Of a DNA stretch of 64,000 nucleotides, positions 1,773 through 53,427 are shown piece by piece; within the stretch, counting starts at the first letter, position 1; the number at the start of each line of letters is the position of its first letter. This DNA comes from Lophium mytilinum (Eukaryota), in assembly GCA_010093605.1 (NCBI GenBank), contig MU004189.1, forward strand, positions 1,185,834-1,249,833, given 5' to 3'. Position numbers and translations under genes: made by a program. The notes beneath the pieces are model-generated. The model saw only the letters and a list, made by a program, of their open reading frames with translations. It ran no database searches and was not told the origin of the DNA.

Positions 1773-1835
1773 TAAGTCTCACGCACGAGACGTAGTTTCT
1801 CTTTCGTCACCATCCGTTCCACGCTTTCAATCACC

Positions 1836-3178: not shown

Positions 3179-4324
3179 ATGTTCCTCAACCGTCCCCTGC
3201 TGCACCTCTTCTTGAACCCAAAGTACCGAACAAGCCCACTTCAAACCACCATGACACCAGAACAACATACCGAGCTACCAGGGAGTGGCTGGGACTGGTA
3301 CGCAGGCCCCGCAAACCCAATCACGCTCCCGGAAGAACAAGTGACTGAAGTAGGCGGCGTGGTCCCGATTTCGACTGCCGATATCCGAGCATACTTGGCC
3401 CATTACCACGACATCACGCAGAACTTACACAACGTCAACGACATTCTATGGGGTGCACGCGTCGCTCTTCTCCACGTCAAGACCGCCCTATCGTATGTAC
3501 TCCAGCACGATCTCGCTGCAGAGCACGTGGCCCAAATGTTGACAGATCAGGTTCAACTACCAGAACCAACGGAGTCGGAGGCCCAAGTAGAAGAAAAGCT
3601 AACGAAAGCTCAGCGCCTCGCGTTCGACGCTTTGGCCCAGCGGCTCACGTCACTTCAAGAAACAATAGCGGGGCTTCTGGAAGATGAACTGGCAACGTAC
3701 TCGACATACCCTCTTGGTAGATGTTGGCCCAAAATCAGCGCATTTGGCACGCTACGCGAGGTACGAAACGCCAACGCTCACAGCTACCTCGTCGCCCGTC
3801 GTCATTACTACTTTTCCGGAGACGAAATGTTCAAACTGATCAGAGAACTTCCGTCTTGGCGTGCTGAGCTTGAGAGCATGGTACTGGTCTTCGAGAGCTA
3901 CGTTCCGGAAGTTGAGGCTAACAGCAACATGACCATCCCTAATGGGGTACGCGTAGGGTACGGACCGTCCGCAATCTGGTCGCAAAGTGTGACGGTTATG
4001 GCGGATTGGCGAGATCAAGCAGCGGAAACGGAGACGCAAAGCGCAGAACATCAGGAAGAAGCGACCGACGTCCGGCCCCAAACTGCCGACGATCACGCTG
4101 GCTGCGGAGTACACGTCGTCGAGCAAAAGGGAGGAGAAGGAGAAGACGAAGAAGAAGCGGCGGAAGAGATGCCACAGAGTGGTTGGAAAGACCGACTCTT
4201 TGCGCTTGCGATGAAGAGACCCTGGTTTCAGCGACGAGCCGTGTCTCTCTGTGACTTTCTTTGGGCTCACGTGCACCATTTGTACGAAGAAGGGGGAAAT
4301 GATGGGTACGGCGAGGCTGTTTGA
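3179..4324 (+). CDS. Tandem-family paralog A (intact), putative HEPN/DUF86-like RNase-fold protein; the likely start is the ATG at 3251
   Basis: 381-aa ORF. Shares 'QRxAFDALxQRxTxLxE', 'WP...RxxNAHxYL', 'ELxSMxxVxExxxPxVEA' and a C-terminal 'W.RR...L..FL...GYxxx*' with the copies at 50612-51823 and 52139-53427. RNANAH at 3764-3781. Confidence 0.8.
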   Translation: MFLNRPLLHLFLNPKYRTSPLQTTMTPEQHTELPGSGWDWYAGPANPITLPEEQVTEVGGVVPISTADIRAYLAHYHDITQNLHNVNDILWGARVALLHVKTALSYVLQHDLAAEHVAQMLTDQVQLPEPTESEAQVEEKLTKAQRLAFDALAQRLTSLQETIAGLLEDELATYSTYPLGRCWPKISAFGTLREVRNANAHSYLVARRHYYFSGDEMFKLIRELPSWRAELESMVLVFESYVPEVEANSNMTIPNGVRVGYGPSAIWSQSVTVMADWRDQAAETETQSAEHQEEATDVRPQTADDHAGCGVHVVEQKGGEGEDEEEAAEEMPQSGWKDRLFALAMKRPWFQRRAVSLCDFLWAHVHHLYEEGGNDGYGEAV

Positions 4325-4629
4325 GGGGGTCAAAGGGCCGTTCTGGACGAGGAGGGTCTGTGATTGGTAGGTTTTGATTGCTTTTTATAGCTTGTAGTCA
4401 CAAATAAAGCGTTGTCTCACACGCTTTCGTCTCTTTGAAGGACATTTGCGACCATCTGGTTATTCTTTATTCAACGTGTATAGCGTGCGTGCATGCTCTC
4501 AAATTGCCGCTTAATCCAACATTTTAAGAACATGCATCTTTACAGAAAGAACCCCCTTATCTTTGCAACGTGTGATAAATTTCATTCTTCATCGCCAGAT
4601 TTAGTATTGCATCATGGTTAACGTAATGT

Positions 4630-5670
4630 TGCTCAAGAGTTGCCGTCGTCTGGGGTACCCCAACTTACTCCTCAGATTTAAAAGCGATGTAATTGTTGCC
4701 ACACCCCAAATCACATGCCTATCAGCTCGTGCTATTTGGCACCTACATGTCACTGTTTGAGGTCCTCCGGCATGTGATTATACATCCAGATGCAATCCTA
4801 ATTCTCCAGCCTCACATATTACACGAGGGCTCAATGGATCTATTTGCCGCCGTCAGGGTACCCCCACCTACCCTCCAGAGTTCAACGCCATGTAAGGTTT
4901 TCGACCCCCTAAATTGCCAACCTATAAACTCGTACCATTTGGCGCCTGCATACCACCGTTTGAAGTCCTCCGGTAGACTATTGTATTCCAAGGCGTAATC
5001 TCCCATTTCTGGCCTCGCAAATCACACGAGAGCTTATCGGTTGTTTTCGCATCTTACTCGCCGCCGTTTGAGGTACTCCCCGGTGACCTACAGATTCTGA
5101 CCTAATGTAAAGTCTCTGACACTTCAAATGGGGAATCTACCAACTCCTACCGTTTGGCTCCTACACCATACCGTCTGAAGTGTTCTGGTGGGAGATTATT
5201 CGCAAAGATGTGATATCATTTCTCCGGCCTCACATATCACACGCGAGCCCATGATGCTTTTGGATCTTATCCACCGGCGTCTGGAGTACTCCTACGTGCC
5301 TGCCGGACTCTAAAGCGACGTATAGTTCTCGACCCTCCAGATTGCAGGCCTACGAACTCGATCCACTTGGCACCTACATCACGTCGTTGAAGTCCTCCAA
5401 CAGGCAGTTTTATTCCTTGCCTTAATGTCACTATTCTGGGCACACATATCACAGAGGCTCATTAGGTGCTTTTGGACCCTATTCGCCAGCGTTAGAGGTT
5501 CTTCAACATCCGAATTCGTTCCTGGTTTTAACGTCAAATCCTCAAAGTCTCAAACTTCATGCACGATAGTCTGCAGGTTTTGGCACCGACATACCGCTTT
5601 TTGGGGTCCCCCAGAGGCCAAGTTCTTGCTTGGGTCCGATGTCAAATTCTTGACAGCACAGATCTCGCCC
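4630..5670. repeat. Five degenerate ~210-bp tandem repeats, probably a decayed coding repeat of ~70 aa
   Basis: The anchor TTGGC.CC..CA recurs near 4737, 4939, 5154, 5368 and 5580. CACATATCACAC/G-like words recur near 4813, 5017, 5231 and 5443. Minus-strand translations repeat 'GAKW.EF.G...GS.T' with stops and frameshifts. Confidence 0.8.
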
Positions 5671-5751
5671 ATGGTAAAAGGCAATGAACATCATGTATAC
5701 ATGTATACACCATTCGACTTGTACCTTCACAGTGCGGGCCAGTATAGTGCG

Positions 5752-6167
5752 ATGAGACGAATCCGCTTACACACTCCTCCACCGTAGAAAAACCGCCAAG
5801 CATTAGGGCGGCCGTCAAGTATCGAGATCTCAAAGCAGACCTCGAAGCATTACAGGATCTTCGAGACGATAGCTTCTTGTATGAGCAAGATAGGCACGAT
5901 TACACAGACGAGGACCAAGGATATGGCTATTGGCACGGCTAGACGGAGGACGACTACAACTACTGGTATTCGTTAGCCGACATCAAAGCGCATTCACAGA
6001 GTGCTGAGTCCATTCGACTAGGCTGGGGCATGCAGTTTTTAATCGCTGTCTTGCAAATGCCCTGGGCTCGACGAAAAGTCGTGAAGCTGAGCAAGTTCCT
6101 GGATGAGTGGCTATACGAGCATCCAGAAGATCCCACGAACCTCGCGAGATACTGCAACGAGGTGTAG
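5752..6167 (+). pseudogene. Tandem-family paralog B, C-terminal remnant
   Basis: The frame ending at TAG 6165-6167 reads ...GWGMQFLIAVLQMPWARRKVVKLSKFLDEWLYEHPEDPTNLARYCNEV*. This aligns with GRGTKLFTTVMQASWVRQNIAKLRTFLNEWHHEHPELPKDLRGYSNEV* of paralog C. In-frame TAG at 5940-5942. Confidence 0.8.
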
Positions 6168-6929
6168 CTCTGGACTTGATGCTGAGTCTATGTCCAGAAC
6201 TCTTGCGGTTGGTGCAATCGAGTCTACTTGAGTAGTTTGAACGGCCTTTAAACGCATTTCTACTGTACCTTACCCATAGCACATCTGTTGATTCTTCCCA
6301 ACAACTTGATCGTATTCTTGTCTTGTGTCGCGAATTGGTCTACCGCGAACTCTAAATGCGTCCCCTAGCACTCCAGCCTCTCACTACGCTGTAGCTTATA
6401 TTTCAACCTTCTAACTATCAAATTACCTTTCGCTCTTTAGTATTTCGATCGCAAACGTAAGAGCGTGGCCCACACCCTTTGTTTCGATCCCATAAACTCA
6501 AGTGATTGATGTCGAGCCCTTTCCTGTCCAGCAGCCTTTCGTAGCACCCTGTGTATACCTTTTTTTCTGCCGCTCAATACGTAGCCCCTGGACGCTTGTC
6601 TATACAACAGCTTTTGGACCCACATCCTGACCTTTTTCTGCTTGCCGCTCATCGCCTGATAAGGTCCAATCCCTGATCCTCTCCCCACTACACGCTGCTC
6701 AACTGCCATCGAGTTTAGAAAGCATTAATCTTTCCGTGGGGTGGAATGTGCGTTGATGTATTAAAACATACAATGTAGTCACATTCACACATCTTACATA
6801 ATTCACAATGCATTCATATTTGTATATATATTGCGCTTCGGAAGCCTTATTTCACGGATTACTTATTATAACTTATCCCTTCGAAAGCTTTCCAACAAAT
6901 TAACCATCATAAACCCCGGGAAAACAAGC

Positions 6930-7071
6930 ATGGAGGGCACTACCGCTTCGTCTTCGTCCGATCGTCTACTAAAAACATGCAAGTATTGGCCTGGGTATAA
7001 AGCTCCAGATCCAGATCCAGCTCCACCGGCTACCACCGAAGAGTCGTGGGACTGGTCCGTACCACCGTTAA
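6930..7071 (+). pseudogene. 5' fragment of paralog C (46 codons plus the TTAA target), separated from its 3' part by the giant insertion
   Basis: ATG at 6930 gives MEGTTASSSSDRLLKTCKYWPGYKAPDPDPAPPATTEESWDWSVPP-L. The WDW word also occurs in the N-terminus of paralog A (SGWDWY). TTA is in the same codon phase at 7068 and 50612. Confidence 0.85.
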
Positions 7072-7078
7072 GGTTTTC
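7068..7078. repeat. Left junction: TTAA direct repeat plus 7-bp terminal inverted repeat GGTTTTC
   Basis: CCACCG TTAA(7068-7071) GGTTTTC(7072-7078). Composition switches to AT-rich just inside. Confidence 0.85.
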
Positions 7079-8981
7079 ATTCACTTAATACAACGTTTTG
7101 CAGTCATTAAACTAGAAGTGGCGTTTAGGATTCACTAGAGAAATAGCAACTATAGTGCTCTTTTAGTATAGTATATTAATAGAAGCAGCACGTAATTTAG
7201 ATAGTAATATGCCGACGGAGCATATAAAAAGTAATGCGGAGGAGCTATATATATAGACGCGTTATAAAGTTACTATATAAGATAAAGTTTATAAGCCTAA
7301 AGAAAAACTATATTTAAGCTATAATTCCCTAAATCTTAAACCTAATCTATAATTCTTCTAACTCTAATTACCCCTCTTACCTTTATACTAATTACCCCCC
7401 TTAGCTTTACCCTAATTAACTCCCTTAGCTTTACCCTTACGGGCCGCGGTGCTCTTCTTAGATTTAATTAGAACTCCCCCTTTACTAATAGGTTAGAAGT
7501 TACGCCCGCTAAAGGGTAAACTTTTATATATAGTTTTAAGATTAGTAGCTATATACTACCCTAATACCTTATAGCCCGGAAGATAGAATTATTTAAGTAC
7601 TTTAGTAATCTAGAATAATTTATTATTATACGCGCGGTAAATAGGGGGAATCTATATAGGTCGCCCTTCTATATTATTATTCTCTAAATCTATTAGGCTA
7701 TAATCTTTAACTTCTCTATCTCTATTTATTATTAAACTCTTTAGACCGCGAGTAGTTTTCTTTCTATTATTATTATTGCTAATATTATTAGTCTTTTAAG
7801 GTTATTTTAACGTAATACCTATATTTATTATATTAGCATGCAAGAAATATAGCTAAGATAAAAGTAAGTATACCTAATTTTAGTAGTATACTACCTCTAG
7901 TCTCTTTATCTATACTTCTATTACGCGTTAAATCTTTCTTAGTAGTTTCTAACTCTACTAGACTAGACGTTATCTAGTTCTCTTTAGCTATATTAGTTAT
8001 CTTATCCTTTAGACTATAAGTTAGTTACTTTCTATTATTCTTTCTAATAGGCTTATAAGGTTATTTTACTATAGCGTCTAATTCTACTTAACTAGAGGCT
8101 ATCTAGTTCTCTTTAGCTATTCTTATATAATTTAAGTGGGGGACCTTTATAAGTGCTAATAGTAAGAGTTAAAGAATAAGGTTAATCTAAGAAGGCTACT
8201 AGCTAGAAATAGGGCTTTTAGACCGGCCTAGAAATATTTATAGATATTTAAGTAGATAGTAGAGTAAGCCTACTAATATTCTTTTAATTCTATAAAAGTA
8301 AAAGTAAGTTATAAAGAGCCCTATGAATATATAGATTATATAAGATATATAAAAGGTAAGCGCTTTAGTAGATTTCTAATAGAGTTTTCTAGTTCTAAAG
8401 AAACTTTAGTACTACTAGGTTCTAGACACCTTATATAGAGCTTGCGGCTTAGACTTTTATTACTACTAGTATTATAATAGACTAGTTTAGGCGTAAATAT
8501 AATTATATAGACCTCTATAGCTAGAAGTACTTTAGTAATTATAGGCGTCTAGCCTTAGAGTATTATAAGCGTCTATAGTACTAATACTTAATTTATAGAT
8601 AGAGTAAGTAATAGTAGGTCTTTATTTAGCTAAAAACTATAGATAATCTTAACTTATAGCTTAGTAATATACTTATTAACTAGTTAATCTATTATTCTAG
8701 GTAATATAATATTAGAGTATAATTTATTCTATATAGTATATAAGTTCTATTATAGGCGTAGTATAGCTACTATATAAATATCCGCTAGTAAAATAAAAAA
8801 AGGTATTGTAACTTATTTTATTATAGTGTCTCTTAAATCTAGCTTAGTAACCTTATAGGCTCTTTATACTATCTATCTAATATTAGCTTAAAACTAGGAT
8901 ATAGGCGGCCCTAGGCAGTATAGTATTATCTACCTATAGTGCCTTATATATATACTAAGTAGAACTTACTTCTATAAAGGC

Positions 8982-9234
8982 ACGCAGGTAATAGAAAAAG
9001 CTAGATACTAAAACTACTTACTATTTTTATAGCGTAATTATAGTAAATTATTAGGAGAAAGCTATACTTTAAAAGTAGATAAAAGTAATCTTAAGAAGTA
9101 GCTCTTTCTAATAGTATAAATTTTAAGCTTCTAGATAAGTAAGTAGTAGCTAAATATTAATATACTTTAAAGTATTTTTTGCTTATATAAGTAATTTTAA
9201 TAGTTTAGTATCTAGCTTTTTCTATTACCCGCGT
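8982..9234. mobile_element. Small MITE-like element with ~33-bp TIRs
   Basis: ACGCAGGTAATAGAAAAAGCTAGATACTAAA(A)CTA at 8982 is the near-perfect reverse complement of TAGTTTAGTATCTAGCTTTTTCTATTACCCGCGT at 9201-9234. Confidence 0.7.
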
Positions 9235-9235
9235 A

Positions 9236-9508
9236 AAAGGGTGCCGCTTAGAGCATAATTATAACCCTACTAGCTACGCAAGGTAAGGAATATTAAAATA
9301 ACTCTAAATCGGCAGCTTCTTAGAGCTATATCTTAAGATAAAAAAGAGGTTTTAAGTTATAAAAAGTTTAGAGATACTTATAGGGACGTAATTACTCTAG
9401 TACCCTACCTTAAAGTTATTATTTTATTATTATAGTTACTATAGACCTATATCTTAGTTTTTAGTAAAATACTTATATAATATAATTATGCTCTAAGCGG
9501 CACCCTTT
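9236..9508. mobile_element. Second MITE-like element with perfect 28-bp TIRs, abutting the first
   Basis: AAAGGGTGCCGCTTAGAGCATAATTATA (9236-9263) and TATAATTATGCTCTAAGCGGCACCCTTT (9481-9508) are exact reverse complements. Confidence 0.8.
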
Positions 9509-10349
9509 ATAAGGTTTTTAGCGCTCTTAAGCGGCTAGAGAGAGTAGAAGTTTAGGTAAGTACTTATATACCTAAGTAAAAGTTATAGGCTATCTATAAT
9601 TAGTTCTTTATACGCTCTATATTATATAACCCCTTATTTAGGCTACTTATCTATCTTAAATAGTTTATAGGCAGGAAGCTCTTTAATTATAAGTATTATC
9701 TTTCCCTTTTTTTTATATTCTACTTCTATAGAGTATAGTAGACTATATTCTAGAAGTTAACCCTTTCTACTCCGTATGCATTAAATAGAGATAATAATCT
9801 AGTAAGAGAGAATATATTATATATACTCCGCTGTCCCCTAAGTATATTATACTAAATATAGCTTATTATAATGCTTCCCTTCTATATAGGAGACCTAGAT
9901 AACTATATAATAATCTAAAGCTAGTAATCTTTCTAGAAGGGGTATAAATTATATAAAAACCCCTTAGTAGTTAAAGGGGTAATAATCTAATTAAACCCTT
10001 TATAGATATTTCTATTACACCCTCTATAGAGATTTCTATAGCACCTACTATATAGTCTAGTATAGTACTTATAGAAATTTCTATAACTACTACTAAGAAG
10101 ATTTCTATAATATCTTCTACTAATTCCCTTATATTTATGCTACCTACTAAATTTTCCACTAGTACTTAAAGTTATATTAAACGGTTTTAGAGCACCTTTA
10201 AAAAGCTAGAACTACTACTTTAGGTATTATACTTCTTCTATATTACTATTAACTAGAACTAATAAGATCTAGACCTATATTAAGTTATATAGTTAATACT
10301 TTATTAGCCTATAGATCTATAGTAGGGCATCTAAGCTAACCTTTTTAGC

Positions 10350-12760
10350 TATTCTTTTAAGCTAGATTTCTTAGAAGAAGCTAGTATATTAATTAAAGCG
10401 TCTATATAAAATATACTATAAGCGCTTAAAAAAAAAGTAAGGCTTTAGTATTTACTAGAAGAGCTCTTATCTAGTACCTATCTCTAATATAGTATACTAA
10501 TTAAATTAGAAAGATTATTAAATGCTATAGCTATTACCTCTACTAAGGTTATTAAATAGTATTATAAGGCAATTAATAGTATAGAGTAAGTATAACTATT
10601 AGTCTAGTAAGCTACTACTAATAAAGAAGTTAGGCTCTATTAGAGATAAGCTAAGGCGGCTAGTAGCTTAGAACTACTCTATCTAGCGCTAGAAATCTCT
10701 AAATACCTACCCTAGGCTCTATAGAATTATCTTAGTAAAAGTTTTAACTTTAGTACCTCTAAGAAAACTCTTACTAACTATAACTAGATAAATATAAGGC
10801 TAGAAGCTCTCTATAGTATTAATACTACTCTATACTAAAGTTAGATACTTATCTAAGAGAAAGTTAATAACTATAGCTATATTAGTATTAAGATTTCTTA
10901 GTAAAGTAGGTAATTAACTATTTAGAGGGAAATATTTACTAAATTAGGTAGCGTATATAAATACTCTAGCTTTTCTACATTTAAGAAAAATATATATAAA
11001 AAGCTATTACTTTTTTAGAAGTAATCTAAAAGGGGTACCTAGCGCACTATTACGCCTAGGCTCCTACTTTAGCACCCCTAACCTCCTCTAGCCGGCCTGT
11101 ATAATATTATAGTACTATATACTCTAGTAATAGTAAGACGCTACTCTTAGTATACTATTTTAAGTATTATTTTTTAGCGTATTAGATTAATACTAGTAAC
11201 TTAAATTATATAGTGCTAGTAGTAGGGCTTATACTATCTTAAATTATCTTAAAGAAGTAGCTAAGGCACCTAAAATAATAATAAACGCCTATAGTATAAG
11301 ACCTAGAATCTATATACTTAGAAGCCTATCTATTCTACTATACTACCTAGGTATATATATTAGTTCTAAGCGGCTGCTATATTATAGATAGTAATATACT
11401 TAGTTATAGCTAAAATAACCGGGTTGCCTAGAGAGACAGGTAGCGGGTTAACTAAATAATACTTCTATTAGTAATTATTATAAGAGGAGTATTCTAATAT
11501 ATAATTTAGACTTTAGGTACACCGCTTTAGTTCTAGAGATAGAGGTGCTAATTATTACGTTGCTAGAATCTAAGAGCGGGTTTAAGAAAAGAGATAAAAG
11601 ATATTAGCCTAATTAGCGCGGGCCTATTAGACGGCCGATAAAGCCGTTAGATAGTAAAGTATAGTAGAGTAATTCTATAAGATTTAGTAGCTAGAGAATT
11701 AACTAAAATAATAGACTCTAGCTACTAACTATATAGTATACGTGTGTAGTTTATAGATACTAGTATATTATAGAACTAGTTATTATAACTAAAAATATAT
11801 TAAGTACTATATATTAAGTATAGGGTTTTATATAAGTAAACTAGGTATACTTACCTCTTACTTATATACTAGCTTCTATTAGCTTACGTAAATATACATG
11901 CCTACTTTATAATAATCCCTTAGGCTATAATTATAACGCTTCTTTATATCCGCCGGCCTTAGTTTAGTTGGATTAATACTATATAGAGTAATTTTTCTTA
12001 AGTAGAGGGGTAGACTATAGCTCTATAAGGTCTAGTGTATATAAGAATCTTTCTAGAATATTATAGAAGTAGCCTAAGCTACTAAACTACCTCTATACTA
12101 TAAAGGAAGATTCTAATTTCCTACTAATTTAGACTAGAATTACTTATATACCTTTATTTCTAGTCTATATACTTACTATTATAGTACTTAATATCTTATA
12201 TAGAAAGTAATTAAAATTATACTACGCTAGTACTATTAAGATTTCTAGACTATATAACTAATAGTCTATACTATTAGTATTATAGTTCTTATCTTTACTA
12301 TTACCTACTTAGACACTATATTAGAACTTATTATTACTACTACTTATAATCTTCCGCAACTATATAGAGAAGTAGCTAGGCCTATAGTATTCTAGCTTTA
12401 GATATTTTTAAGTTAAGTATTTACTATATTTAGTCTTTCTATACTAAGAGTAGCATAAATATATTAGTATTATCTTCTTTTTAGAATATATAGATTTATA
12501 GACAGGTTACTAGAAAAAGACACCTACTTAGAGAATAGTAACTAATTTATTAGTATAGATATAATATATCTAGAAACTAATTATATTAATATTTTATCTA
12601 ATTAAGAGTCTCTATATAGTCTAATAAGCTCTAATTAACCGGCGCCCGGTATATATACTAAATCCGCAAGCTAAGATACTAGTATAAAGATTTAGCGTTG
12701 CATAGAAATTAAGGCTAACGGTTTACATTATAAAAATAAGAAAAGAGTATAAGTAGAAAA
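10350..12760 (+). pseudogene. RIP-degraded long cargo ORF, unidentified
   Basis: One plus-strand frame stays protein-like over ~2.4 kb when TAA/TAG are read as Gln/Trp/Arg. No motif recognised, and limits are approximate. Confidence 0.35.
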
Positions 12761-12859
12761 GTATAGACTATAGGTATACTACCCTATATATTAACTTAAA
12801 TAGTATCTTATTAGTATAGTGTTAGTATTCTTATATAAATAGTCTTAGCGCTTAGCTAT

Positions 12860-14900
12860 ATATAATCTCTAACTCTTCTAAATAGTAAAAGGTCGCGTAG
12901 GCCTTAGTAATATAGTCCCTATTAGCTTATTTTATAGTTCTATCTAAGTCTATTTACACCCCTAGGTTAACGTATTCTATCTTTAAATATCTTACTAGTA
13001 TTAGAAAGCGTTAGCCCTATCTTTCTCTAGAATGCATAATTAAGGTAAATATACACTAAGTATACTATAGTAAGAGGTATTTAGAAAGGGCCTAATAAGT
13101 AACTCTTTAGGATATCTTCTATCTATTAACTATCTATTAGCTAATAGCGCTCTATATAAAATAAATAGAATCTTACCCTACTATTATAAAAGTTATCTTT
13201 CTTAAGTTCTATCTAATTATATTTCTTAAGAATTTCCGTAAGTAAATATGCGTCTTTATTTATCTAGACTAAAGCCTAGCACTTCCCTTTATTCTTATTT
13301 AGGCCCTTAGTTCCGGCTATATCTACTAGATATATTTGCTTACCTAAGAGTATTAGCTAATAGATTAGATCCGCTCGGGATAATTACTTATTAATAATAG
13401 TAGGCTAAGTATATCTATTCTCTAATAGACTAGCAATTAGTATATTAAGACTAGCCTAGCTAGTTATAAGATATTAACTACACTTTAAGTATCCGGGTAT
13501 AAGGTCTTTAACATTTCTCCTTTAATCTATTTCTAGCAGTTCTTTAATATTACTAGACTTAGTACTATTACTAATAGTAAAGAGTATATAACCTTTTCTA
13601 TTTACCCTTATAGTACTAAATATAACTTAAGTATTAGCGTCTAAGAATATGCTCTTAGCGACTTTTCGCATAATAGAGTTAGGCTAGGAGAATATTATAT
13701 GCAACTTTCCGGCACTACTATAGCTATCTAAAATAATATAAATATTCTTAAGTTTAGAGTAAGAACTAAAGTTATTAATAAGCCTTTAAAGTCCGCGCTA
13801 TATATTAATATTTATATTCTCTATATTAAAGATATAGTTAAACTTATATAACCTTACTTTGCTAGTACCGTTTAAATTATTAAGGTTAAGCTTTTGTCTT
13901 CTGTTATTAACTATAAGAGGAAATAATAGCTAGTTGTCTAACATCTTTAATATCTAAAGCTAAACCTAAGCTCTAAGCTATAATATCTAGAGAAATAGTA
14001 CCTTATTTTAATAAATATTAAGTATAGGTATTTTACTATCTATATTCTCTCCTCTTTAAAGTTGTCTTACTATTTACCGCTCTTAATAAATTTTTAAAAT
14101 ATACTCTCTAGGGAGTTTATTTACCTTCTCTTTAAGGCGTCTATACTCTTTACTAATTATAAGGTTTTACTTTACTATATTTAACTATCGGCGTTTAAGA
14201 TAGCTATAGTACTCCTTATTAAATTTCTTTTTAGTATTAGTAGAATTTTTATACTATGCACACATTTTTATTAAAAGATTACATACCTTATTTCTTTCTT
14301 TAAGGGCTCTAATTATCTCTACCTTAGTTTTAAGCGTATTACGTTCTTTAATTACTTTATAAAGATTTTACTTAAGTATCTTTATTCTAGATTTAGATAT
14401 CTCTACTTAAGTTTAAAGGCTATCTTAGTCTATAAATATATTATAAAAAGTTTATTTAAGTTATAATACTTAAATCTTAAGAAGCTCCCGGTTTTTACTT
14501 ACTTCTTTAATTATAAGCTTATTATAATACTTAGATATCTTATAAAGCTATTACTTAAGTATCTCTACTTAGATTTAAAGGCCCTCTTAGTCTATAGATA
14601 TTTTATAAAGCTATTACTTAAGTATTTCTACTCGGGTTTAAAGGCTATCTCGATCTATAGATATCTTATAAATAATTTACTTAAGTTGCGGCACTTAGTT
14701 TTTAAGAACCTTCTAGTCTTTAGTTACATTTTAAAGGGTATAAATAAGTATATCTATTTTAATTATAAGCTTATTACAATGCTTAGATACCTTATAAAGC
14801 TTTTACTTAAGTGCCTAGATAATTACTATATAAAGACTAGAATAGTAGACACGTTTAAGAAAATTAAAAAAAGAAGTATATACTCTATATATTCTATTTA
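12860..14900 (-). pseudogene. Kinesin-like gene K1: N-terminal coiled coil and C-terminal motor (kinesin-14-like architecture), RIP-inactivated; may extend 5' to ~16100
   Basis: The minus frame reads YKFNYIF (F.FD.VF), NIYIILDSYSSAGKLHIIF at 13690-13746 (de-RIP DGYSGAGKSHTMF, P-loop), PTIINK*LSRAD near 13375-13400 (T..N..SSR, switch I), LVDIAGTK at 13306-13329 (DLAGSE, switch II), then INKD. Motif order is as in kinesins. Confidence 0.85.
14340..14820 (-). repeat. 63-bp (21-aa, three-heptad) coding tandem repeats forming the K1 stalk
   Basis: The unit GATATCTTATAAAGCTATTACTTAAGTATCTCTACT...CTATA repeats with period 63 near 14533-14660, with degenerate copies on both sides. The minus frame gives IDRDSL*TRVEILK**LYKIS (de-RIP ~DRDSLQTRVE.LEQQLHE.S). 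Confidence 0.8.
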
Positions 14901-16799
14901 AAAAGCTAGTAAACTTAAAGTTAGTATACTATTCTACTAAGTTGTGTAAGTAGATAGTAAAAGTCTATTTTAGCTAACTAAAGATAGCTAGCTAAGAATT
15001 TATAGTAAGAAGGAGGTTATCTACCTAGTTTTTATAGAGAGGATTATAGGTACTCCTAGAAAGAAATTAATAATACTAAAAAGTATATAAAACCTAGTCT
15101 TAAAGATTTTATAGTACTTAATATACTCTAGTATAAAGAAGCTAAAGAAGTTAATAAAGAGTAGAACGGAAATAATAGTAGCTACTATAAATACTAAGCT
15201 AATTAAAATAATAACCTATAGATATAGATATAAGGCAATAGCTATTAGAAATAATATAGCGGCACTAAATAACCTAGCTAGACTAGGGCGTAAATAAGCT
15301 TTATATAGAGCGCGAATAAGAGTATATTATAAGAGAGGTAAAGATAGTATTAATAGTTAGATAAAGAACTCTTAGCAGTAATTTAGCGCTAATTATTAGG
15401 CGAGGGGCTACGGTAGTAATCTTATATTAATAGTACTATATAAGCGTTCTAAGGGCAATCTTATATTAATATTTAGATAACGGCGTATTCTTAAAAATTT
15501 ATAGAGTAGTATTTAACTATAGATAAAAATACGTATTTATAATAATAGCTATAGAGATACTAGTATCTAGCCTACTAGAGTATCTAAGTAGTTTCTAGAT
15601 AGAGAGAGTATATAATTTACTATATAACTCTTTCTAGCTAAATAACTTAAGCTTAAGAATAAAGACTACTTATAGTTTTAAGTAACTTCTATATTTTCTA
15701 GAATATTTTATAGAATATTAGCTACGCTAAGATAGTTTAATAGTTTAATTATATTAAAGGTAGAGATATATACTAAGGTATCTAATTTGCGTCTAGCTAA
15801 GTAGATATAGAATTCTTTAACTTTATTAAAGGAATTCTATAATAGATAAACTTAGATTTCTTAATCTAAAACCCTCTATCGCCGTAATTACTTACTTTAC
15901 CTAGCGGAGACGGCAGGCCCGCTGTGCTTTAAAGTGGCTAACATTAATAGCTCTAGCTTAGTAGGCGGGTGTTCTATTACTATAGCTCTACTTCTTTAAA
16001 TTCCTTAGCTAATTAGTATAGCTTATCTACTCTTAAAACTTCCTTAGCTAATAATACCCTCTACTATACCTTCTACTACCCCTAAATTTCTAATAAATTA
16101 AAGAGGCCTTATATATAGTAAGAATATAGGTAAGATTAAAGCTTTAGATAAAGCTCCGGGCCGTTCTAGCTAATTAGAAGATTAGACGGGAGGGTAGTAT
16201 ATAAATACTAGCGTCTAATTTAATATTAATTTAATTTATTTAATTAAATTAGGGCGCTCCTAATTAAGTATTTAGTTTAATCTATTTTAAGAGGCCTAAC
16301 TAATTAATTAGTTAGATCCGAGCCTAGAAAGTATTAACTATTTAGATACTAAAATAAAGCGTAGTATATAATAGCTAAATTTTAGATAAACTCTAAGTTA
16401 AGAGTCTCTTAACTTAACTTAGTAAAGAAATCCACTTATTAGTAAGTATAAAGGCAGCGATACTTTCTTAAAGTAATCTATAGAGGGAAGTTAGTATAGC
16501 TTCTTATATATAGCTTTAAACTACTATTTAGCTTAACTATAGTAAGCTAATATATTACTATATTTCTAGGTAATTAATTAAGTATACTAAGTCTAGTATC
16601 TAAATAAATATAAAGAAGACTATAGTTCTATATCGGCGTGCTTCTAAAAAAGCGTTAAAAACTATAATTTTAAGTATATATTAGCAACCTAAAAAGAGGT
16701 TATTACTCTATATTTTATAAATATTTATTCTAAAAAGATACACGTACTTACTAAATCTACCTTACTATTACTATTCTAACTTCTTTCTTCTAGAACGCT

Positions 16800-19335: not shown

Positions 19336-19345
19336 NNNNNNNNNN
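19336..19345. other. Assembly gap (10 N); the true element length is therefore uncertain
   Basis: Run of N. Confidence 1.
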
Positions 19346-23755: not shown

Positions 23756-24433
23756 AAGCTTACTTATTACCCCCTCTTTCTCTATATATTACCCCCCTAT
23801 TCTCTATATATTACCCCCCCTCCTTTTAACTAGCTCTAGGCCCGTATTAATATTATTCCTCTAATTAAACTTACTTATCTAACTTTATAGAAGGCTGCGT
23901 AAAATAGTAAGTATATATTATAAAATAGAAAGGCTGCAGTATACTAGCTATTAGAAGTCTATTTACTCTATCTATTATAGCTAGTCTAGAATTAGACTTC
24001 TTTAAACGGTTTAGGCGCTTTCTATTAGCTGGAATATACTCTCCTGCGCACTCGCATTAAACTATTACCTTGCGCACCTAAGGGGGGCTCTACTTATCTA
24101 TTTTTTTATTATATTTAATAATTATATAGCCCTTATATTTTACCTATATATTAATAGACTTTATACCTTTATTAATAAAGTTATAGCGGCCCTAGGGGGG
24201 CGGCTAGAGGGGCATAGTAGTAAAGTAATAATATAGAGAAAGTAGTATTAATATATTAAGAGAGAGAGTATATAGCTACTTATAAATTTAAATTAAGTAT
24301 AAGCGGGTAAGTAAGTAAGTTTAATTAGTAGAATAATATTAATACGGGCCCGGAGCTAGTTAAAAGGAGGGGGGGTAATATATAGAGTATAGGGGGGTAA
24401 TATATAGAGAAAGGGGGGGTAATAAGTAAGCTT
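23756..24433. repeat. Long inverted repeat (~122-bp arms, ~435-bp spacer), foldback/MITE-like
   Basis: 23756-23877 (AAGCTTACTTATTACCCCC...GGCCCGTATTAATATTATTC..CTAATTAAACTTACTTA) is the reverse complement of 24312-24433 with few mismatches. Each arm contains ~22-bp internal repeats TATTACCCCCC...CTCTATA. Confidence 0.85.
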
Positions 24434-24799
24434 TTCTAATTTTAATTTTATTATTACTAGGCTAGAAATTAAAGCTATTTCTATTTACTTATATATACTA
24501 GCTCTACTCTTATTCTATATAAACCTACTAATAGTATAAATTTAAGAATAATACTAATATAAGACTTGCCCCTAGTGCTTTCTCTACCTTAAAGCTAATA
24601 AAACATGCCGTATAGTATTTCCTCTAAGTTATAGTAATTATTTATAATAATAAGTGCAGGCTTATAATTCTTTTAAATTTAGTTCTCCTCTAGGCTTTTT
24701 TAAGCCTACTAGATATAGTTATACTTAGTAGTCTTCTAATCTCTTATTAGCTAGTATATCTTTATACGCATAAGATTAGCTACATTTTAATCTATCTTT

Positions 24800-37500: not shown

Positions 37501-37559
37501 GTGTGCTAGACTTATAACTTAAGAAGGTAAACTTATAGAGTAAGAAGTTAAACCTAGTA

Positions 37560-43619: not shown

Positions 43620-43727
43620 AGCGATAAGGTTAATAGTAATAAGGTTAATAGTAATAAGGTTAATAGTAATAAGGTTAACGGCAATAAGGTTAATAGTAAT
43701 AAGATTAACAGTAATAAGGTTAATAGT
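43620..43727. repeat. 15-bp tandem repeat, about 7 copies
   Basis: (A/G)G(T/C)(A/G)ATAAGGTTAA(T/C) repeated. The least-mutated bases give GGC GAT AAG GTT AAC. Confidence 0.9.
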
Positions 43728-44199
43728 TAAGAGTGTTAAAATTTATAGTAGGTAATATCTTAGCTATCTAGATGCATAGTAAAATAGAAGGAATAAGGTA
43801 TAAAATAGAAGAGCTATATAATAAAATAGAGAGTATATAGAGTTTATAGTAGAACTATATAGGCAAGTATAGATATAGACTTAGATTTAATTAGATCTAG
43901 TAGACTAATTAGAAGCTAAGAATTATAGACTCTAAGCCTTATAAGTATTAAAATACTAACCTTAATACTAAAACTATATATTACTAAAAACTATTAGAGC
44001 TTCTAGAGTGCCTATAGCCTTTAATCTAAGCAGCCTAAATAGAAACTTAACCTAGGTCTAATACTTTTTTAGGTACCTCTATCTAGCTCTAGCCTAAATT
44101 ACTCTAGTCTAATAACATTACTAGAAAATAGTAGAAAAGGTAATTATTTTATCTATATAGGGCCGGCCACCCGCTAAAAAGAAGAGATTCTACCTAGTA

Positions 44200-45780: not shown

Positions 45781-46899
45781 TTTACTTACTCTACTAGAAC
45801 TAGTCTATTAGTAAAGTTAGTAATAAGAGAGGTAAGATATATAGATTTATAACTTATACTCTAGGTATAAATTCTTTAGTAATATTTTAATAACGTAGTT
45901 ATTATAGTATATTACTATTATAATATTCTATAGAAGTGTATTATTTAGATATATAAATACTACTATCTAACTTCTTAATATTATATAGATTTAGAGAATT
46001 TACTTAATTATACTAAAATTAAATCTTTTAGCGTCTTACATATTATAAATTTCTAGTATTTTTTCTCTAAGTAATATTATTATATAACTATCTTTCTTCT
46101 TTACCTTACTATCTCCCTCTTAATGCGCTTTATCTAGTTATTACAGACTACTATAGTCTAAGCTAGCGGTAGAAGGGCTAATATAGTAGTCTTTATTATA
46201 GGGCGGTAGAGTAGAATTACAACCTATAATAAGATTAGCGGTCGGGTTTAGTAGCTAGTAGTATAGAAGGTAATAACTAGAAGAAAAAATAGATTAGAGA
46301 AGGTAATAAGTTAATTTATATACTTTAAGGTACTATTAAACTCTATAGCCTAAATATTTATCTAGAAGTTATAAGAATCTTCTTAAACTACTTTACTCTA
46401 GTAAGGTAGTAGGGCGGCTCTATATAATTCCCTATATATAATATTATATTATTTATTACCTAAAGTAGTTTAGTATATAAATCTAAGGTATTAAGGTTTA
46501 ACCTTACTATATAGATATTACTATAGACATAGCCTAGGCCCTAAAGCTAGGCCTAGCCCTTAGTATTATTATTCTTATTATAGACGTTCTATAGAGGGCC
46601 TTAAAAATAGTTATATTATTAGCCTCTACTCTATCTTATACCTTCTATACTAATTCTATAGTATACTAGGTATTCTTTATAGCCTATAAAGCCGCTACGC
46701 GTATAGCTACTATATTAGTAAACAACCTATATAATACTAAGGTCCGGGGCGGCTACGCTATATACTATACTATTAATATTAAAATTTAAGTCTAAATAGC
46801 ATTAAAAACAGCTTAAAAAAAGAAGAAATAGGTAAGAAAGGCTTTAAGAGGAATCCGTTAAGATAACTATTAAGGTAGTATATAGCTAATAGAATTTAG

Positions 46900-49800
46900 A
46901 CTATTTCTTTTAGAAGAGCCTATTATATAATACCTTAAGTTTTAAACTATATACTATATAAATTAGAAATCTAGTATAGGCTATACTAAGCCTTTATACT
47001 ATAGAAAAAGGCTATAATATAGATACCCTATTAGAGCTCTATAGCCTTAGCTCTAGAATTTTAGAGGTCCCCGCTATAGTCTTCTAAAGCTACTAATTAG
47101 GGGCGCTTCTAGAGCGGAATATAAAGTAGTAGAATTAGGTATCTATTAGCTATACTATAGGCGTTACCTTAACTAAGCCTTATATTAGTATTTCTAATAT
47201 ACCGGCTTCTAGCTTTCTATATATATACGCCTATTATATATTATACGCTAGAGCCTATAATCTATAGTAGTATCCTCCCCTATATTAATATAATAGCTCT
47301 AGGCCTCTAGCTCTATAACTCTCTCTTTTAATTTAATTACTATAAAATTAAGAGAAACTAGCTAAATAGAAATCTTTCTAAGACGACTAAGAAAAATCTA
47401 AAGAAAATAAAATATAGAAACATTAAGAAAATAAGAAAAAAAGTTATATATCTTTAGATATACACCTAATATTATCTATATACTTATCTACTATTACCTA
47501 AAGAATATTATAAATAGTTATATAGAACTTCTTTTCTATAATCTTCTCTATTTAGAATTTATTGCAAGATATAGCGCCGGAAATATCTTAGAGAGAGCTA
47601 TTAAGAAGAAATAAGTTACTAGTAGTAAGGTTAAGCTTTACGTTACGTTTTAAATATTCTTAGCCTCTAATACCTATCTTCTCTCCCTTATTACGTAGCA
47701 CTATATTAAGGTATTTTTATATATTAATAGAGTCTATTTAATACCGGTCTTTATTATCTATAAGTCTCTTTTTAACTATATTATTATTATTAAGGAAGGT
47801 TAATAGGAAAAGCATTAGATTTATTAGCGGTTTCTCTAGTATTATCTTATCTAGGGAGTAGACTATAAAGAATACTTAGTTCTATTTAGAGCCCTTTTTA
47901 TTAAATAGTAAGGGTAATAATAAAAGGTTTATTATATACTAAAGAGCGGGGATATAAAATTATAGTATAATATAAGTTATATCTAGCCACCTTACTAGAG
48001 ATATAAGTAATAGCGGATATTCCTCCTTAATATAGGGGATAATAATAGCTTTACCCTATAGGTAGCTTCTATTTAAGAAAATATAAGTAAGAATTTTAGA
48101 GTAACTATTAATATACTTGTAAAAGCTTATAGTAAATAGTTCTTATCTATTCTACTCTACTTATTTAATAGAACATTCCCTAAAATCCCCGGATAGAGCT
48201 TTAGTAGGTAATAGAAGGCTAGTAGCTATCTTTTAAAGAAGTAGCTATCTAGCCTTATTACTAAGATCTATAATTCTTTATAATAAAAGGCTCGCACCTT
48301 AGAGATTAAGGTTAAAGGGGCTTCTATAAATATTTATCCCGTCTAGCAGGAAAATAAGTAGGCCTTGTCCCTCTTAATAATAGAAAAGAAAATTAAAGAA
48401 GAATAGCTAGTTAAACTAGAATAACCTTATCTTAACTATTATATAACCGTACTTATATTATATAACATACTAGTTCTTTCTAATCTTTAGAATAAAGTCG
48501 CCTGTAAGTAGCTATATTAGAGAATAAAGCACCCTATATTTAGCCTTAGAAAGCTATTAAATTATTTCTAGTATAACTATATAGAAGCTATTATAATTAC
48601 TATATTTAGCTTAAATTATTCTTAAGATTTCTTACCGCGGTATACTATTTAGGGTTTTCTACTACTAGTTAATTTTTATATAACTTATTAGATTCTTAAC
48701 CTTAGTACTATATATATAATATCTTAGTATTATTCTAATATTACTCTAGTATACTGCGTATAGCGCTAGGGGTACTATAATCTTCTAGATTAGATATAAT
48801 CCTCTACGCCTAAGAGAGTTTTAATAAAGAGCGGCTAATAGTAGGATTTTATTCCTTAGAATAAAGAAAATAAAGTCTAGTACCCTTAGTAAATAGTAGA
48901 TAAATACTATTACTATACTTATTATAACCCAATTATATATAGGAAATCCTATCTTAATATTAATACTAATGCCTATTATACTTAGCTAGGATTTAGCCCA
49001 TCTAATCCTTACTATATTATTAAGAGATATTCTTTTTAAGGCTAGGTTATTTATAGAGATAATTACTATATTATATTCTATAAAGTTAAGAGCTAGAATA
49101 GTTAATAGAAGTAGTCTAGACGCTAGTTTATAGAAAGATATACCTAGCAATATATAGATATTCTACCTAGTAATATCTATTATATAGCCTCTATAGCTGC
49201 TATTATTACTTAACTCTATAATCCCTAGTATTTTATTATTATGTTTACTTATAGGGTTGCGTTTATATTTATTAGCCTTAATCTTAGTATTAGAGTTATT
49301 CTTATTAGCCTTACTCTTATCTACTATATACTTAATATCCCTAGTATATATAGCTTTCTAAGTAAGCCTATAAATAAGTTTCTTAACTATATTAAGATCT
49401 TTTAGGTCTCTTAAATAATCTATTCCCTTCTTTAAGCTTAATATTTAAATTAGCTTATAGTTATAGAATAGCTGCTTAGCTAATTCTCTTAGAAGAACGC
49501 GTAGTAGCGTATTTAAGATATAGAGTATTAGTTACTAGTCTTAATAATAGTGCTATAATTATATATACTATAGAGATCTTATAGAGTTTACTTTATCTTC
49601 TCTCTATTTTTTAGAAGCGACTAGAACGTCTCTTATAGCGGGCCTCTCTTAATCCCCTATACCTGCCCTAGAATATATTAAAGAAGATAATATACGTAGC
49701 TTATTATAGAGCCTAGATCGCTTAAATTAAATATCTAAGTAATCTTATAGTTAGATTTAAGTATTCTATTAGTAGAGATTCTATAGAGCTTTTTAGCTAT

Positions 49801-50070
49801 CTTAAGAACTTTATTCTCTAACTATATCTCTAGAATATAGAGAATAGTTACTATAATTAGTCTAGTAATACTTTTAATCTCCTTCCGGCCTTTATATATA
49901 GGGTCTAACTCCCCCTCTTTTAGCTTATTATCTTATAATTTCTTATCTTCTAACCCTTTATCTTCTAGTCTATTATCTTCTACTATCTCTTCTTTTATTT
50001 TCTAAGCTTTATATATTTCTTAGGGTTTAGTAAGGGGTTTAGTAAGGGGTTTAGTAAGGGATAAGCTATA
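46900..50070 (-). pseudogene. Tyrosine recombinase ('captain', DUF3435-like), RIP-inactivated, intron-containing
   Basis: Minus strand, in order: acidic N-terminus; LV*LAILL*FSF...GTRP at 48419-48360 (cf. captain RVQL...LQ....G.RP, catalytic R); LFTISFYK; EEYPLLLISLVRWL (cf. E..PL..CPV..L); NLMLFL; LRNKGEKIG; LSLRYFRR ending at 47574 ((H/Y)xxR); L*Y(H)S at ~47513-47502; Tyr at 47480 and 47471. It is the first gene, about 0.5 kb from the terminus. Confidence 0.75.
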
Positions 50071-50604
50071 ATATAGTTAATAAATTATATATTCTTCTAG
50101 AGTATTACTAATTAAGTTTATAACCCTTAGATTTAATAGGTACTTCTAGAATAATCTATAAGCTATATTAAAACGTATGCTAGCTAGCTAGAAAAGATAC
50201 TCTAGTAGGTAGAGACTAAAAGTAATAGCTAATATTATATTAAAGGTTATAAAATAAATATATTAATAGATAAATAACGGCCCGGATTACTATAGGGAAT
50301 TCTAATAGTACTAGTAGGCCCTTCTATATAAGATATAAGGTATTTAGTAGATAATAGCGGAGGTATATATAGTAGTTATAAGAAGTATAAAGTTTACTTA
50401 GAATATATAACCCTCTAAATACTATTAGCTATTATTAGTATTTAGGTATAAATATCTAACTATAAGTTATAATATTATTAGTTACAATATTATTTAGCGG
50501 GCAATTTAAAACATGTACCTTGTATTATATACTTCTATTAAACTTTATATACCCCGCACATCTATTAGACTTTATACTGTATACCCGCGCACTGTTATAT
50601 GTAA

Positions 50605-50615
50605 GAAAACCTTAA
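50605..50615. repeat. Right junction: 7-bp TIR GAAAACC plus TTAA direct repeat
   Basis: GTAA GAAAACC(50605-50611) TTAA(50612-50615) CACCTG. Composition returns to normal GC immediately after. Confidence 0.85.
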
Positions 50616-51823
50616 CACCTGCCCACGCGGAAACAAACAACAACACTCCTCTCGAAGCAGATGTAGAGACGGCCGAGCCAATCCAGACCACAAATGCTGG
50701 CTACCTTGACATTGCACAGACGGAGGTACCTCGTCTGTTCAACTCAAATGCCGACATCATCGCTTACCAGAGGGCCGAATCCAAACGAACCGCTTACGCT
50801 ACGAGAATCGAGCATAATGGCTACAAGCTCAACTGGGCTCTCTACAATTGCCGCGCAGCTCTAGCTCTAGTGACCTCTATCTTGGATCTGATCAGAAACC
50901 ACCACCTCCATAAAGATCTCTTGCTGAGGGAAGTATTTTATGGTCTAGATTCAGAGAGCGTTAAGGGCCAAACCATGACTCCTGAACAGCGAGTTGAGGG
51001 TCGAACGATCACTCCTGAGCAGCGAGTCGCTTTTGATGCTCTTGTCCAGCGCTTCACTGCCCTCTCCGAGCTTATGCCTCTCTCGGAATACATAGAAGTC
51101 TTACTTCACTACGGGAGTGAGATCTGGCCAGTTGTTCACAACCTTGGCAGGGGGGGTAAGTACAACATCTACTACCAGCGGTGTTTGAACGCCCACAATT
51201 ACTTGGTTGGAAGCAAACATCCAGATCACTTTGTGAGCTGGATCTTTAAGAAGATGCGAATATTCCCCAGACTAGAGGTCGAGCTTTGTAGCATGATTGC
51301 GGTATTGGAGGATTTCATTCCAGACGTAGAGGCTCTGTGGGGGTTTGATGTGACGGAAGCCGACCAAGATACGCGAGTCGGTTGGGTAAAAGAAGGCTGG
51401 TCTTCGGCGGATTCTTCGCTGTTGAGACCTCGAAATCGCCCACCCGCTCCTACGCCACCTCCGTCAGAGGAATGGAGGCCGGAAAGCCCCATAGGTGGTT
51501 GGGATGGTTCAAGGCACGAAGAAATCGAGGCCCATCGTAAGATGCTAAGGGAACTCGACGATTACCCCGACAGTGACGACGAATCCCAGTACGGCGACTA
51601 TGACGAGGACCCTGAGGCTACCCTTTGGACGGCCCAATGCGAAGCCCGTCAAGAGATCAATGAAGTACTACAAGTCGGAAGGGGCACTAAATTGTTTACG
51701 ACTGTGATGCAAGCTTCTTGGGTCCGCCAAAATATTGCCAAACTGCGCACGTTCCTCAATGAGTGGCACCATGAGCATCCGGAGCTCCCAAAGGATCTCC
51801 GTGGGTACAGCAACGAGGTGTAA
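50612..51823 (+). CDS. 3' part (403 codons, still open) of tandem-family paralog C, putative HEPN/DUF86-like protein
   Basis: The first 33 codons of ORF 50513-51823 are element-derived AT-rich sequence. The remainder aligns with paralogs A and D. RCLNAH at 51179-51196; ends GYSNEV*. Confidence 0.85.
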   Translation, partial: LTPAHAETNNNTPLEADVETAEPIQTTNAGYLDIAQTEVPRLFNSNADIIAYQRAESKRTAYATRIEHNGYKLNWALYNCRAALALVTSILDLIRNHHLHKDLLLREVFYGLDSESVKGQTMTPEQRVEGRTITPEQRVAFDALVQRFTALSELMPLSEYIEVLLHYGSEIWPVVHNLGRGGKYNIYYQRCLNAHNYLVGSKHPDHFVSWIFKKMRIFPRLEVELCSMIAVLEDFIPDVEALWGFDVTEADQDTRVGWVKEGWSSADSSLLRPRNRPPAPTPPPSEEWRPESPIGGWDGSRHEEIEAHRKMLRELDDYPDSDDESQYGDYDEDPEATLWTAQCEARQEINEVLQVGRGTKLFTTVMQASWVRQNIAKLRTFLNEWHHEHPELPKDLRGYSNEV

Positions 51824-52138
51824 CTTGGAGCCAATGTGGAATGTGGAACAAGAAGCCCCCTCCGTCAGTCCCATTTCAGGGGAAATGTGCAGTTCGAGCA
51901 ACACAGCTACGATTAGTCTCTAAATGCATGCCTAGTTATACCAAAATCATACCCCGTTCCTGTTTTCATTATATCAATGCTTTATTTCTCTTGCCTCGTG
52001 TCGTGAACTCACTTACGTGAAAACACTGAACACAATAGTATTATGATGTAGATGTGACAGCGTGGGCCAGACTGATCTTAGATCCATGAAATCAACTGAT
52101 CGCTGCCGCACTTTTCTAATCATCACCTTGTCTATACC

Positions 52139-53427
52139 ATGACTCCCACCACTCATTAATAGGCTTCTCGGTGCATCAACTCTTCGTTCTACATTTCCCT
52201 CGCTTCTTTTGCTTGCTGCTAATCACCTGATAGGCTCAGTCCTTGAACCTCCTAAGGACCGTCTATCCAGCGTTGAAGACCCTGAGGCACACTCATCATG
52301 CAGTGAAGCTCCACTACCAGATAGAGTTGCCAAATCACCAACCCCTGTAAGCGAAGTGCCATGGAGCCATGAGTCCGAAACCACCAAATTTTCAAAAGTC
52401 AGGAAATGCACATCGAGTCCCAAGACAAATTGGCGGACGAACCTCGCAATAGCCCTTAAGAAGATACGCAAGAACAGCCAGATAACGAGCCTTCCACCAA
52501 TATCCCACATTCCGGAGCCGCTGTCAGCAAGCCCTTTCTTACGCCCGTCGCCGAGATCATCGCAGAAATCAGGAACACAACACATCCGACATTCCACAAC
52601 AACCTGCGAGACCGATTAGCACCCAATCTCCACAGCCTCATCTACGCTATGCGCTCCGCCCTTTTCTTAGTACAAACTTCATTAACTATCATTGAAAAAT
52701 ATGGCCTCAATAAGTACCAGCTTATGACAACTCCGATCCTAGCTCCAGAGGGCAACACCTTGACAGACGACCAACGCATTGCCTTGAATTGAGTGATCCA
52801 GCGTACGACCGCCCTATCTGAACTCCCACAAAATCGGTATGGCAAGAGCGTGTGGGAACAGCTGAGCAGTATACACAACTGGGCAAGTTTATTCTGGCCA
52901 GTCCTCTACGACTCAAGGGGCGACTTGTACGCCCAGCGGTGTAGGAATGCCCACGAGTACCTGGCTGGGGGGAAGCATCCGACGAACTTCGTGGAGAAGC
53001 TACGGGAGCAGCTAGAAAAACACCCGATGATGGAAGCCGAGCTGGTCAACGTCATCGAGGTGTTGGAGGATTTTGTTCCGGATATTCAGGCCCAGTGGAT
53101 GGCGGATGGTTGGCTGCTGGTTGAGGCGGGCGACTGGTCATGATTTATGAAGACTACGCCGCCAACGCCACCGACATCGGAGATTATTTATGGTTTGGGG
53201 GGCTATGGATGGGGTTATGAGGGTTGGTGTCGGAGCAGGAATCCGTGGACATGACTCCATGTCCGCGACATGGCTGGCGTCGGCGTGTGTTCGACTTCAT
53301 AATGAAGAGCATGTGGGTTCGTCGGAGGGCCCAAAATCTCTGCTACTTTCTCTATGACTGGATCGGTGAGAACGGGAGGGTTGACTTTTCCCAAGAGGAT
53401 ACAGACGGCTATAGCAACGAAATTTGA
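52139..53427 (+). pseudogene. Tandem-family paralog D, disrupted; 5' limit approximate
   Basis: One frame reads NLHSLIYAMRSALFLVQTSL...LTDDQRIALN*VIQRTTALSELP...FWPVL...QRCRNAHEYL...EAELVNVIEVLEDFVPDI. It has stops at 52457, 52790 and 53141 and a frameshift into ...GWRRRVFDFIMKSMWVRRRAQNLCYFL...DGYSNEI*. Confidence 0.85.

Follow-up and report, generated by a model that had tools for sequence, protein, structure and literature searches.

The DNA considered here is a window of 64,000 nucleotides from the fungus Lophium mytilinum (GenBank assembly GCA_010093605.1, contig MU004189.1, positions 1,185,834 to 1,249,833 of the forward strand), in which four diverged paralogs, here named A to D, lie in tandem on one strand. 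The original prediction, made without database searches, was that the four genes form a possibly undescribed cluster of HEPN ribonucleases (RNases) of the DUF86/HepT-like kind. We report the state of the four copies, the insertion that interrupts one of them, the distribution of the family and a computational evaluation of the HEPN reading, which we hold tentatively. All coordinates refer to the window, and the features of the cluster are as follows.

3179-4324, forward strand: paralog A, the sole intact copy
3764-3787, forward strand: motif RNANAHSY of A (R196, H201, Y203), in the block that the family alignment shows to be best conserved
5697-6167, forward strand: paralog B, a remnant reduced to the linker and the C-terminal block
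6930-7071, forward strand: first piece of paralog C, 46-47 codons up to and including the left TTAA (7068-7071)
7072-50611, no strand: AT-rich block of 43,540 bp, with a composition of the repeat-induced point mutation (RIP) type and flanked by a TTAA duplication
50612-51823, forward strand: second piece of paralog C (C2), 403 codons, frame still open
51179-51202, forward strand: motif RCLNAHNY of C
52209-53427, forward strand: paralog D, a pseudogene
52937-52960, forward strand: motif RCRNAHEY of D

The four copies are located within flanks of normal guanine plus cytosine (GC) content (0.47-0.58), on either side of a block from roughly 7.1 to 50.6 kb whose GC content is about 0.27. With the block left out, the cluster measures 3893 + 2816 = 6709 bases, which agrees with the predicted span of ~6.7 kb. 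BLASTP aligned A with C2 at 28% identity over 351 columns (E 3e-20), and a tblastn search of the window with the C protein located A at 3371-3919 (32%, E 2e-16), B at 5898-6164 (36%, E 3e-11) and D at 52550-53107 (35%, E 4e-28). Together with the family alignment, these matches bear out the tandem arrangement of four diverged, same-strand paralogs. A hidden Markov model (HMM) of the family, scanned against all six frames of the window, detected no copies beyond the four.

Paralog A is intact, as had been predicted, with an open frame of 381 codons and an identical public protein record. B had been placed at 5752-6167; its status as a remnant stands and its left limit moves slightly outward, since a search with P0006, a C-like protein of Mytilinidion resinicola, extended the match to 5697-6164 (E 7e-11). 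No N-terminal domain was found upstream of B in the six-frame scan with the family HMM. C is split exactly as claimed. For D, the damage is real and had been underestimated: it carries two TGA stops (52790-52792 and 53141-53143) and two changes of frame, near 52403-52415 and 53182-53233, where a single frameshift had been proposed, and its alignment with the D-like M. resinicola protein P0007 runs through three frames (52209-52415, 52403-53182 and 53233-53385). Three of the four copies in the L. mytilinum cluster are therefore broken or interrupted. In the public annotation, gene model P0005 (50510-53143) takes its ATG from the edge of the AT-rich block, splices C2 onto pieces of D and skips the D stops; this fusion of a truncated gene and a pseudogene looks like an annotation artefact. 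Counted from 50510, the open frame of C2 has 437 codons.

The block interrupting C lies at the exact break of the C frame, between TTAA copies at 7068-7071 and 50612-50615. The left junction reads CCACCG-TTAA-GGTTTTC (7068-7078) and the right junction GAAAACC-TTAA-CACC (50605-50615), giving inverted ends of 7 bp (GGTTTTC at 7072-7078 and GAAAACC at 50605-50611); a TA duplication with 8-bp repeats is an equally good parse of the same ends. Once the block and one TTAA copy are excised, the frame reads through as ...VPPLTPAHAE.... Our interpretation is that a terminal-inverted-repeat transposon inserted at TTAA within codon 46-47 of C, was later filled, probably by nested further insertions, and was degraded by RIP. 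No transposase was recognised in the block, which leaves the superfamily open, and only two stop-to-stop frames of at least 90 aa lie wholly within it. Over 7072-50607 the GC content is 0.277, the TpA/ApT index 1.75 and the (CpA+TpG)/(ApC+GpT) index 0.15, the usual RIP thresholds being about 0.89 and 1.03, respectively; for the left flank the corresponding indices are 0.82 and 1.11, and for the right flank 0.70 and 1.20.

Dothideomycetes genomes contain gene clusters that adjoin AT-rich repeat blocks degraded by RIP. The locus resembles these in its fast-diverging, lineage-specific tandem genes and in its sharp GC boundary, but genes A to D do not themselves have the dinucleotide bias that is the signature of RIP. 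RIP was considered as the cause of the decay of B and D and rejected, since neither gene is biased.

Two further repeats were observed within the AT-rich block. A tandem array of 63-bp units at 14319-14819 (seven copies, 64-74% alike) overlaps the frame 14467-14901, one of the two block-internal frames of at least 90 aa. A 122-nt inverted repeat (23756-23877 and 24312-24433, 95% complementary, with 434 nt between its arms) is unusually well preserved for its surroundings.

Relatives of the family were searched for with A among 5.8 billion clusters (word-indexed), with C2 among 1.84 billion representatives (all scanned by phmmer), and with a 9-row family alignment in a profile search; the libraries are without unannotated fungal genomes, and the true range of the family may be wider than they indicate. 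With the gene models of L. mytilinum itself (P0001, P0005 and P0010) set aside, the other matches were only three proteins, all from Mytilinidion resinicola, with consecutive locus tags and accessions and each on a 444,505-bp contig.

527843 (P0004), Mytilinidion resinicola: A-like, 212 aa
527844 (P0006), Mytilinidion resinicola: C-like, 428 aa
527845 (P0007), Mytilinidion resinicola: D-like, 394 aa

Other candidates were discarded. The phmmer matches P0008 and P0009 are spurious, being matched only through repeats resembling 'LGPKHPDT' that look by eye like tetratricopeptide repeats; the source of these matches is the stretch LVGSKHPDHF of C, which follows the motif (near 51200-51240). A metagenome scan with the A-type alignment gave 318 pattern matches with a lone 'relative', L020, which was rejected because its match is out of frame with the long frames of the contig; these frames look bacterial (by eye, with no family search). 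The scan with the C/D-type alignment gave 198 pattern matches and no relative.

Since A, C and D each have a counterpart in M. resinicola, the three lineages are older than the species split. A shares 75% identity with P0004 (158/211), C2 is 40.5% identical to P0006 (164/405), the first piece of C is 41% identical to the P0006 N-terminus (16/39), and the main segment of D is 46% identical to P0007 (122/264). The 75% of A against the 40-46% of C and D points to constraint, and A looks constrained; C, judged by these identities, appears to diverge at a pseudogene-like rate. These figures bear on the view that the family is on its way out and without function, the open frames of A and C2 merely being not yet broken. 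Such a state would agree with the broken or interrupted condition of most copies, with a P0004 model of only 212 aa and a P0007 model that lacks the motif, and with C being no nearer to its counterpart than the pseudogene D is to its own; the constraint on A and the 437-codon frame retained by C2 oppose it, and we consider it improbable. The family is lineage-restricted. The tandem family and the decay in the birth-and-death evolution proposed originally are real, and the defence, toxin or incompatibility role that accompanied them is surmised.

The proteins are predicted to be mostly helical and about 380-450 aa in length, with an N-terminal helical-bundle domain of about 190 residues, a poorly modelled acidic linker and a C-terminal amphipathic helix. 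In the family alignment the conserved blocks begin with WDW (in A and C), followed by a helix R.AL..V...L, the block T..QR.A.DA..QR.T.L.E and the pair WP, and then by the best conserved block of the family, R..NAH.YL....H. After the motif come P....EL......E...P and an acidic linker of variable sequence. The C-terminal block GW..R.F...M...W.RR....L..FL..W and the tail Y-x-x-x-V/I-stop are present in all four copies, as the original prediction had them, and the C-terminal helix ends in (G)Y-x-(N/E)-x-(V/I).

The motif, an arginine followed after four residues by a histidine and two positions later by a tyrosine (R-x4-H-x-Y), was located in A, C and D in the predicted forms RNANAHSY, RCLNAHNY and RCRNAHEY. 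Of the six sequences spanning this region, five carry it (A, P0004, C, P0006 and D), with the form RNANAHRY in P0004 and RCINAHEY in P0006. PMC7641770 gives the same spacing, RX4HXY, as the signature of MNT-linked HEPN toxins. The exact R-x4-H-x-Y is common to the fungal family and to HepT/DUF86 (PF01934, with solved structures 5yep and 7ae2), and so are an order of blocks in which D-A-x-x-Q/R-R...L-x-E, a W/P pair, the motif, a hydrophobic block and P-x-x-x-L succeed each other, and a prediction of helices only.

This motif-by-motif parallel was reproduced by hhalign. A DUF86 profile of 25 sequences was assembled from a Synechocystis plasmid gene annotated as HepT-like, its PF01934-carrying relatives and 16 genome loci (L010, which contains stops, was dropped, and P0011, P0012, P0019 and P0020 were left out). 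Against this profile, a trimmed 7-row family alignment gave a single match with a score of 25.0 (P 0.0041) over 90 columns, in which DALVQR..LSE was paired with DAV.R..V.GEA, WP with PW, and QRC.NAH.Y with GMRNKLVHDY. A narrower profile of 12 DUF86 sequences gave the identical pairing (P 0.056). Column shuffling never reached 25.0: the maximum was 20.1 in 122 full shuffles and 24.4 in 122 shuffles that moved blocks of 12 columns, and the reversed family alignment scored 15.4. As the block shuffles leave the motif intact and none of them reaches 25.0, the order of the blocks adds signal beyond the motif, with a small margin over the best block shuffle.

The comparison was calibrated with RnlA of E. 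coli (annotated as RNase LS), which as a single sequence scored 14.4 against the DUF86 profile (P 0.26). The abstract of PMC8266594 calls RnlA a HEPN ribonuclease. Its non-significant score implies that a weak score does not exclude membership of HEPN, and the hhalign comparison is blind across HEPN families. In an Atlas feature search with A, a 'RiboL-PSP-HEPN' cluster ranked second with a score of 0.76, a weak lead below the usable level of the tool.

Other results weigh against the HEPN reading. The sequence libraries were blank: Pfam, at E values up to 10, returned 0 families for A or C; among seven domain pieces searched against Pfam there was no HEPN-type family and no match to the curated PF01934 model; PADLOC matched no model on seven domain pieces; the PDB sequences, searched with a profile, yielded nothing beyond proteasome noise (E 1.6); an Atlas search with P0006 had no feature match; and a home-made DUF86 HMM scored family members at no more than 2.9 bits. 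The HH probability of the hhalign match is only 8.2%, and its P value is affected by selection, the DUF86 comparison having been chosen after the motif was seen. The conservation of the R and H in wider homologues, upheld in P0004 and P0006, fails in P0007, which lacks about 22 residues at the motif; either a genuine deletion or an intron called in the gene model may account for the gap. The fungal domain, at about 190 residues against about 115 in HepT/DUF86, requires insertions. HepT/DUF86 proteins are bacterial and archaeal and occur in HEPN-MNT toxin-antitoxin pairs, whereas the present family is eukaryotic, and neither an MNT nucleotidyltransferase nor another partner family was found in the neighbouring frames of the window. 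Differences are also seen in the acidic linker and C-terminal helix that the fungal proteins add, and in the second position of the motif, which is Cys in the C and D types and Asn in DUF86.

The structure predictions point both ways. AlphaFold2 modelled A (from the 9-row alignment) and the C domain alone (from seven rows) as helices only, and both models are poor, with a mean predicted local distance difference test (pLDDT) score of 50.1 and 56.0, respectively. The motif region is below pLDDT 50 in both models, where it lies in a short helix after a stretch without assigned secondary structure. When the A model was compared with 48,161 chains using VIA-align, FliS and designed bundles came out on top (best Z 8.0); the HepT toxin 7ae2_A ranked 8 (Z 7.0, root-mean-square deviation 3.5, 122 residues aligned of 141) and the HepT toxin 5yep_B ranked 23 (Z 6.3). 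VIA-align states that Z values below about 13 are common for helical bundles, and all of these values are within that range. From the aligned ranges only, the A and HepT motifs would be in roughly the same register. No HEPN chain was among the top 50 for the C model. A Foldseek search of AlphaFold models, which had been proposed as a check for the DUF86/HEPN fold, gave no match for the A or C model at E values up to 0.001, the models being too poor to decide. A complex prediction with two copies of the C domain scored 0.00 with the alignment unused and the fold uncertain, and carries no weight either way.

The blank libraries, along with structure matches to generic bundles, also suit a non-enzymatic, lineage-specific helical scaffold or adaptor, in which R..NAH.Y would be structural, the C-terminal helix and tail would form a docking peptide, and the likeness to HepT would be a coincidence. 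By our own estimate from typical amino-acid frequencies, about one protein in 70 of such length would contain a chance Rx4HxY; moreover, the C-terminal block is the best kept part between A and P0004 (87.5%, 42/48, with 76%, 57/75, in the motif domain), and the tail is retained in all four copies. Set against this are the retention of the motif block across paralogs that are only 28% identical and the order of the four further blocks, which fits DUF86 better than 244 of 244 shuffles. On balance an adaptor seems somewhat unlikely.

A helical-bundle enzyme or ligand binder of a non-HEPN kind, with for instance a metal or haem site formed by the conserved His, His, Tyr and Glu, was also considered. 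Such a site could draw on the second invariant His after the motif (NAH.YL....H) and on a conserved Glu and Arg on neighbouring helices, and the weak structure matches include designed bundles that bind haem or metal. Those matches are in the noise range, however, the sequences match no families of this kind and no specific ligand motif was recognised, so that this explanation appears quite unlikely.

Other HEPN families, namely RnlA/LsoA, Las1, KEN, Swt1 and RiboL-PSP-HEPN, likewise have Rx4-6H on a helical domain, and apart from the sub-threshold Atlas match no sequence link between them and the present family was found. Fungi hold some HEPN families, Swt1 among them, and Las1 and KEN occur in eukaryotes generally; the part of the HEPN survey PMC3710099 from which this is taken describes no fungal family such as this one. 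Nor did literature searches on HEPN in fungi turn up a fungal HepT-like family, which fits the suggestion that the cluster is possibly undescribed.

The assignment to HEPN (DUF86/HepT-like) RNases is accordingly neither established nor excluded, the motif and the hhalign match speaking for it and the blank libraries and poor models against it; taken together, the evidence is suggestive in that it fits a very diverged HepT-like domain without establishing one. The tentative reading, short of an even chance, is that the proteins are HepT-like RNases whose N-terminal domain is a highly diverged HEPN domain of the HepT/DUF86 type; among the single mechanisms it ranks as the likeliest, before an adaptor, another bundle enzyme or ligand binder and a functionless family. 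The family is not filed under PF01934, since the curated model gives no match and there is no MNT partner in the window.

Should the HepT-like reading be correct, two copies would pair with their R-x4-H motifs facing each other, and the dimer would cut RNA without metal to leave 2',3'-cyclic phosphate ends. The conserved Tyr, two positions past the His, may then be a regulatory site, as in bacterial HepT. What the analysis demonstrates is the family, its motif, the order of the conserved blocks and the decay of the copies: A alone is intact in the cluster, C was interrupted, on our reading by a terminal-inverted-repeat transposon at TTAA whose insert is now the 43.5-kb AT-rich block, and B and D are dead. 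A HEPN fold, a dimer, ribonuclease activity and a part in conflict are inferences.

The surroundings of the cluster within the window contain the following features.

1776-2723, forward strand: open frame of 315 codons directly upstream of A, with no Pfam family and no likeness to the paralog family
54868-55686, reverse strand: CFEM-domain protein
57292-59754, reverse strand: GRDP-like glycine-rich protein
60946 onward, forward strand: 5-oxoprolinase

The frame at 1-918 has no Pfam family. Spliced RNA contigs from a same-species run cover 54032-64000, with introns at 55672-55733, 59031-59081, 60898-60945 and 63397-63442; they show nothing over 50400-54031. For 3100-4400, around A, no RNA run with matching content was found, and the same-species run contained next to none of its words. 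Neither result has a bearing on whether A, C2 or D is expressed. Between A and B lies a degenerate direct repeat of about 212 bp (4757-5510, four copies, 63-72% alike).

A more far-reaching form of the HepT-like reading can be put forward, although we regard it as very unlikely in its entirety. The family would be a eukaryotic offshoot of the HepT type, without an MNT antitoxin and with a C-terminal regulatory helix and tail of its own; control of the Tyr would fall to an unlinked enzyme or to the C-terminus of the protein itself. It would have been retained in a single small order of wood-inhabiting Dothideomycetes, at a turnover-prone conflict locus serving allorecognition, meiotic drive or the antiviral cleavage of RNA.

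If the proteins are not RNases, the cluster would be an ordinary orphan family decaying beside an AT-rich, RIP-type repeat block, and would still offer a clean, datable case of a transposon nest splitting a gene, with an exact target duplication and a second part whose frame remains open. If the HepT-like reading holds, a fungus would possess a free-standing member of a prokaryotic toxin family without its usual antitoxin, and a locus combining gene birth, gene death and transposon disruption would provide a case for the taming and use of bacterial-type RNA toxins in eukaryotic conflict.

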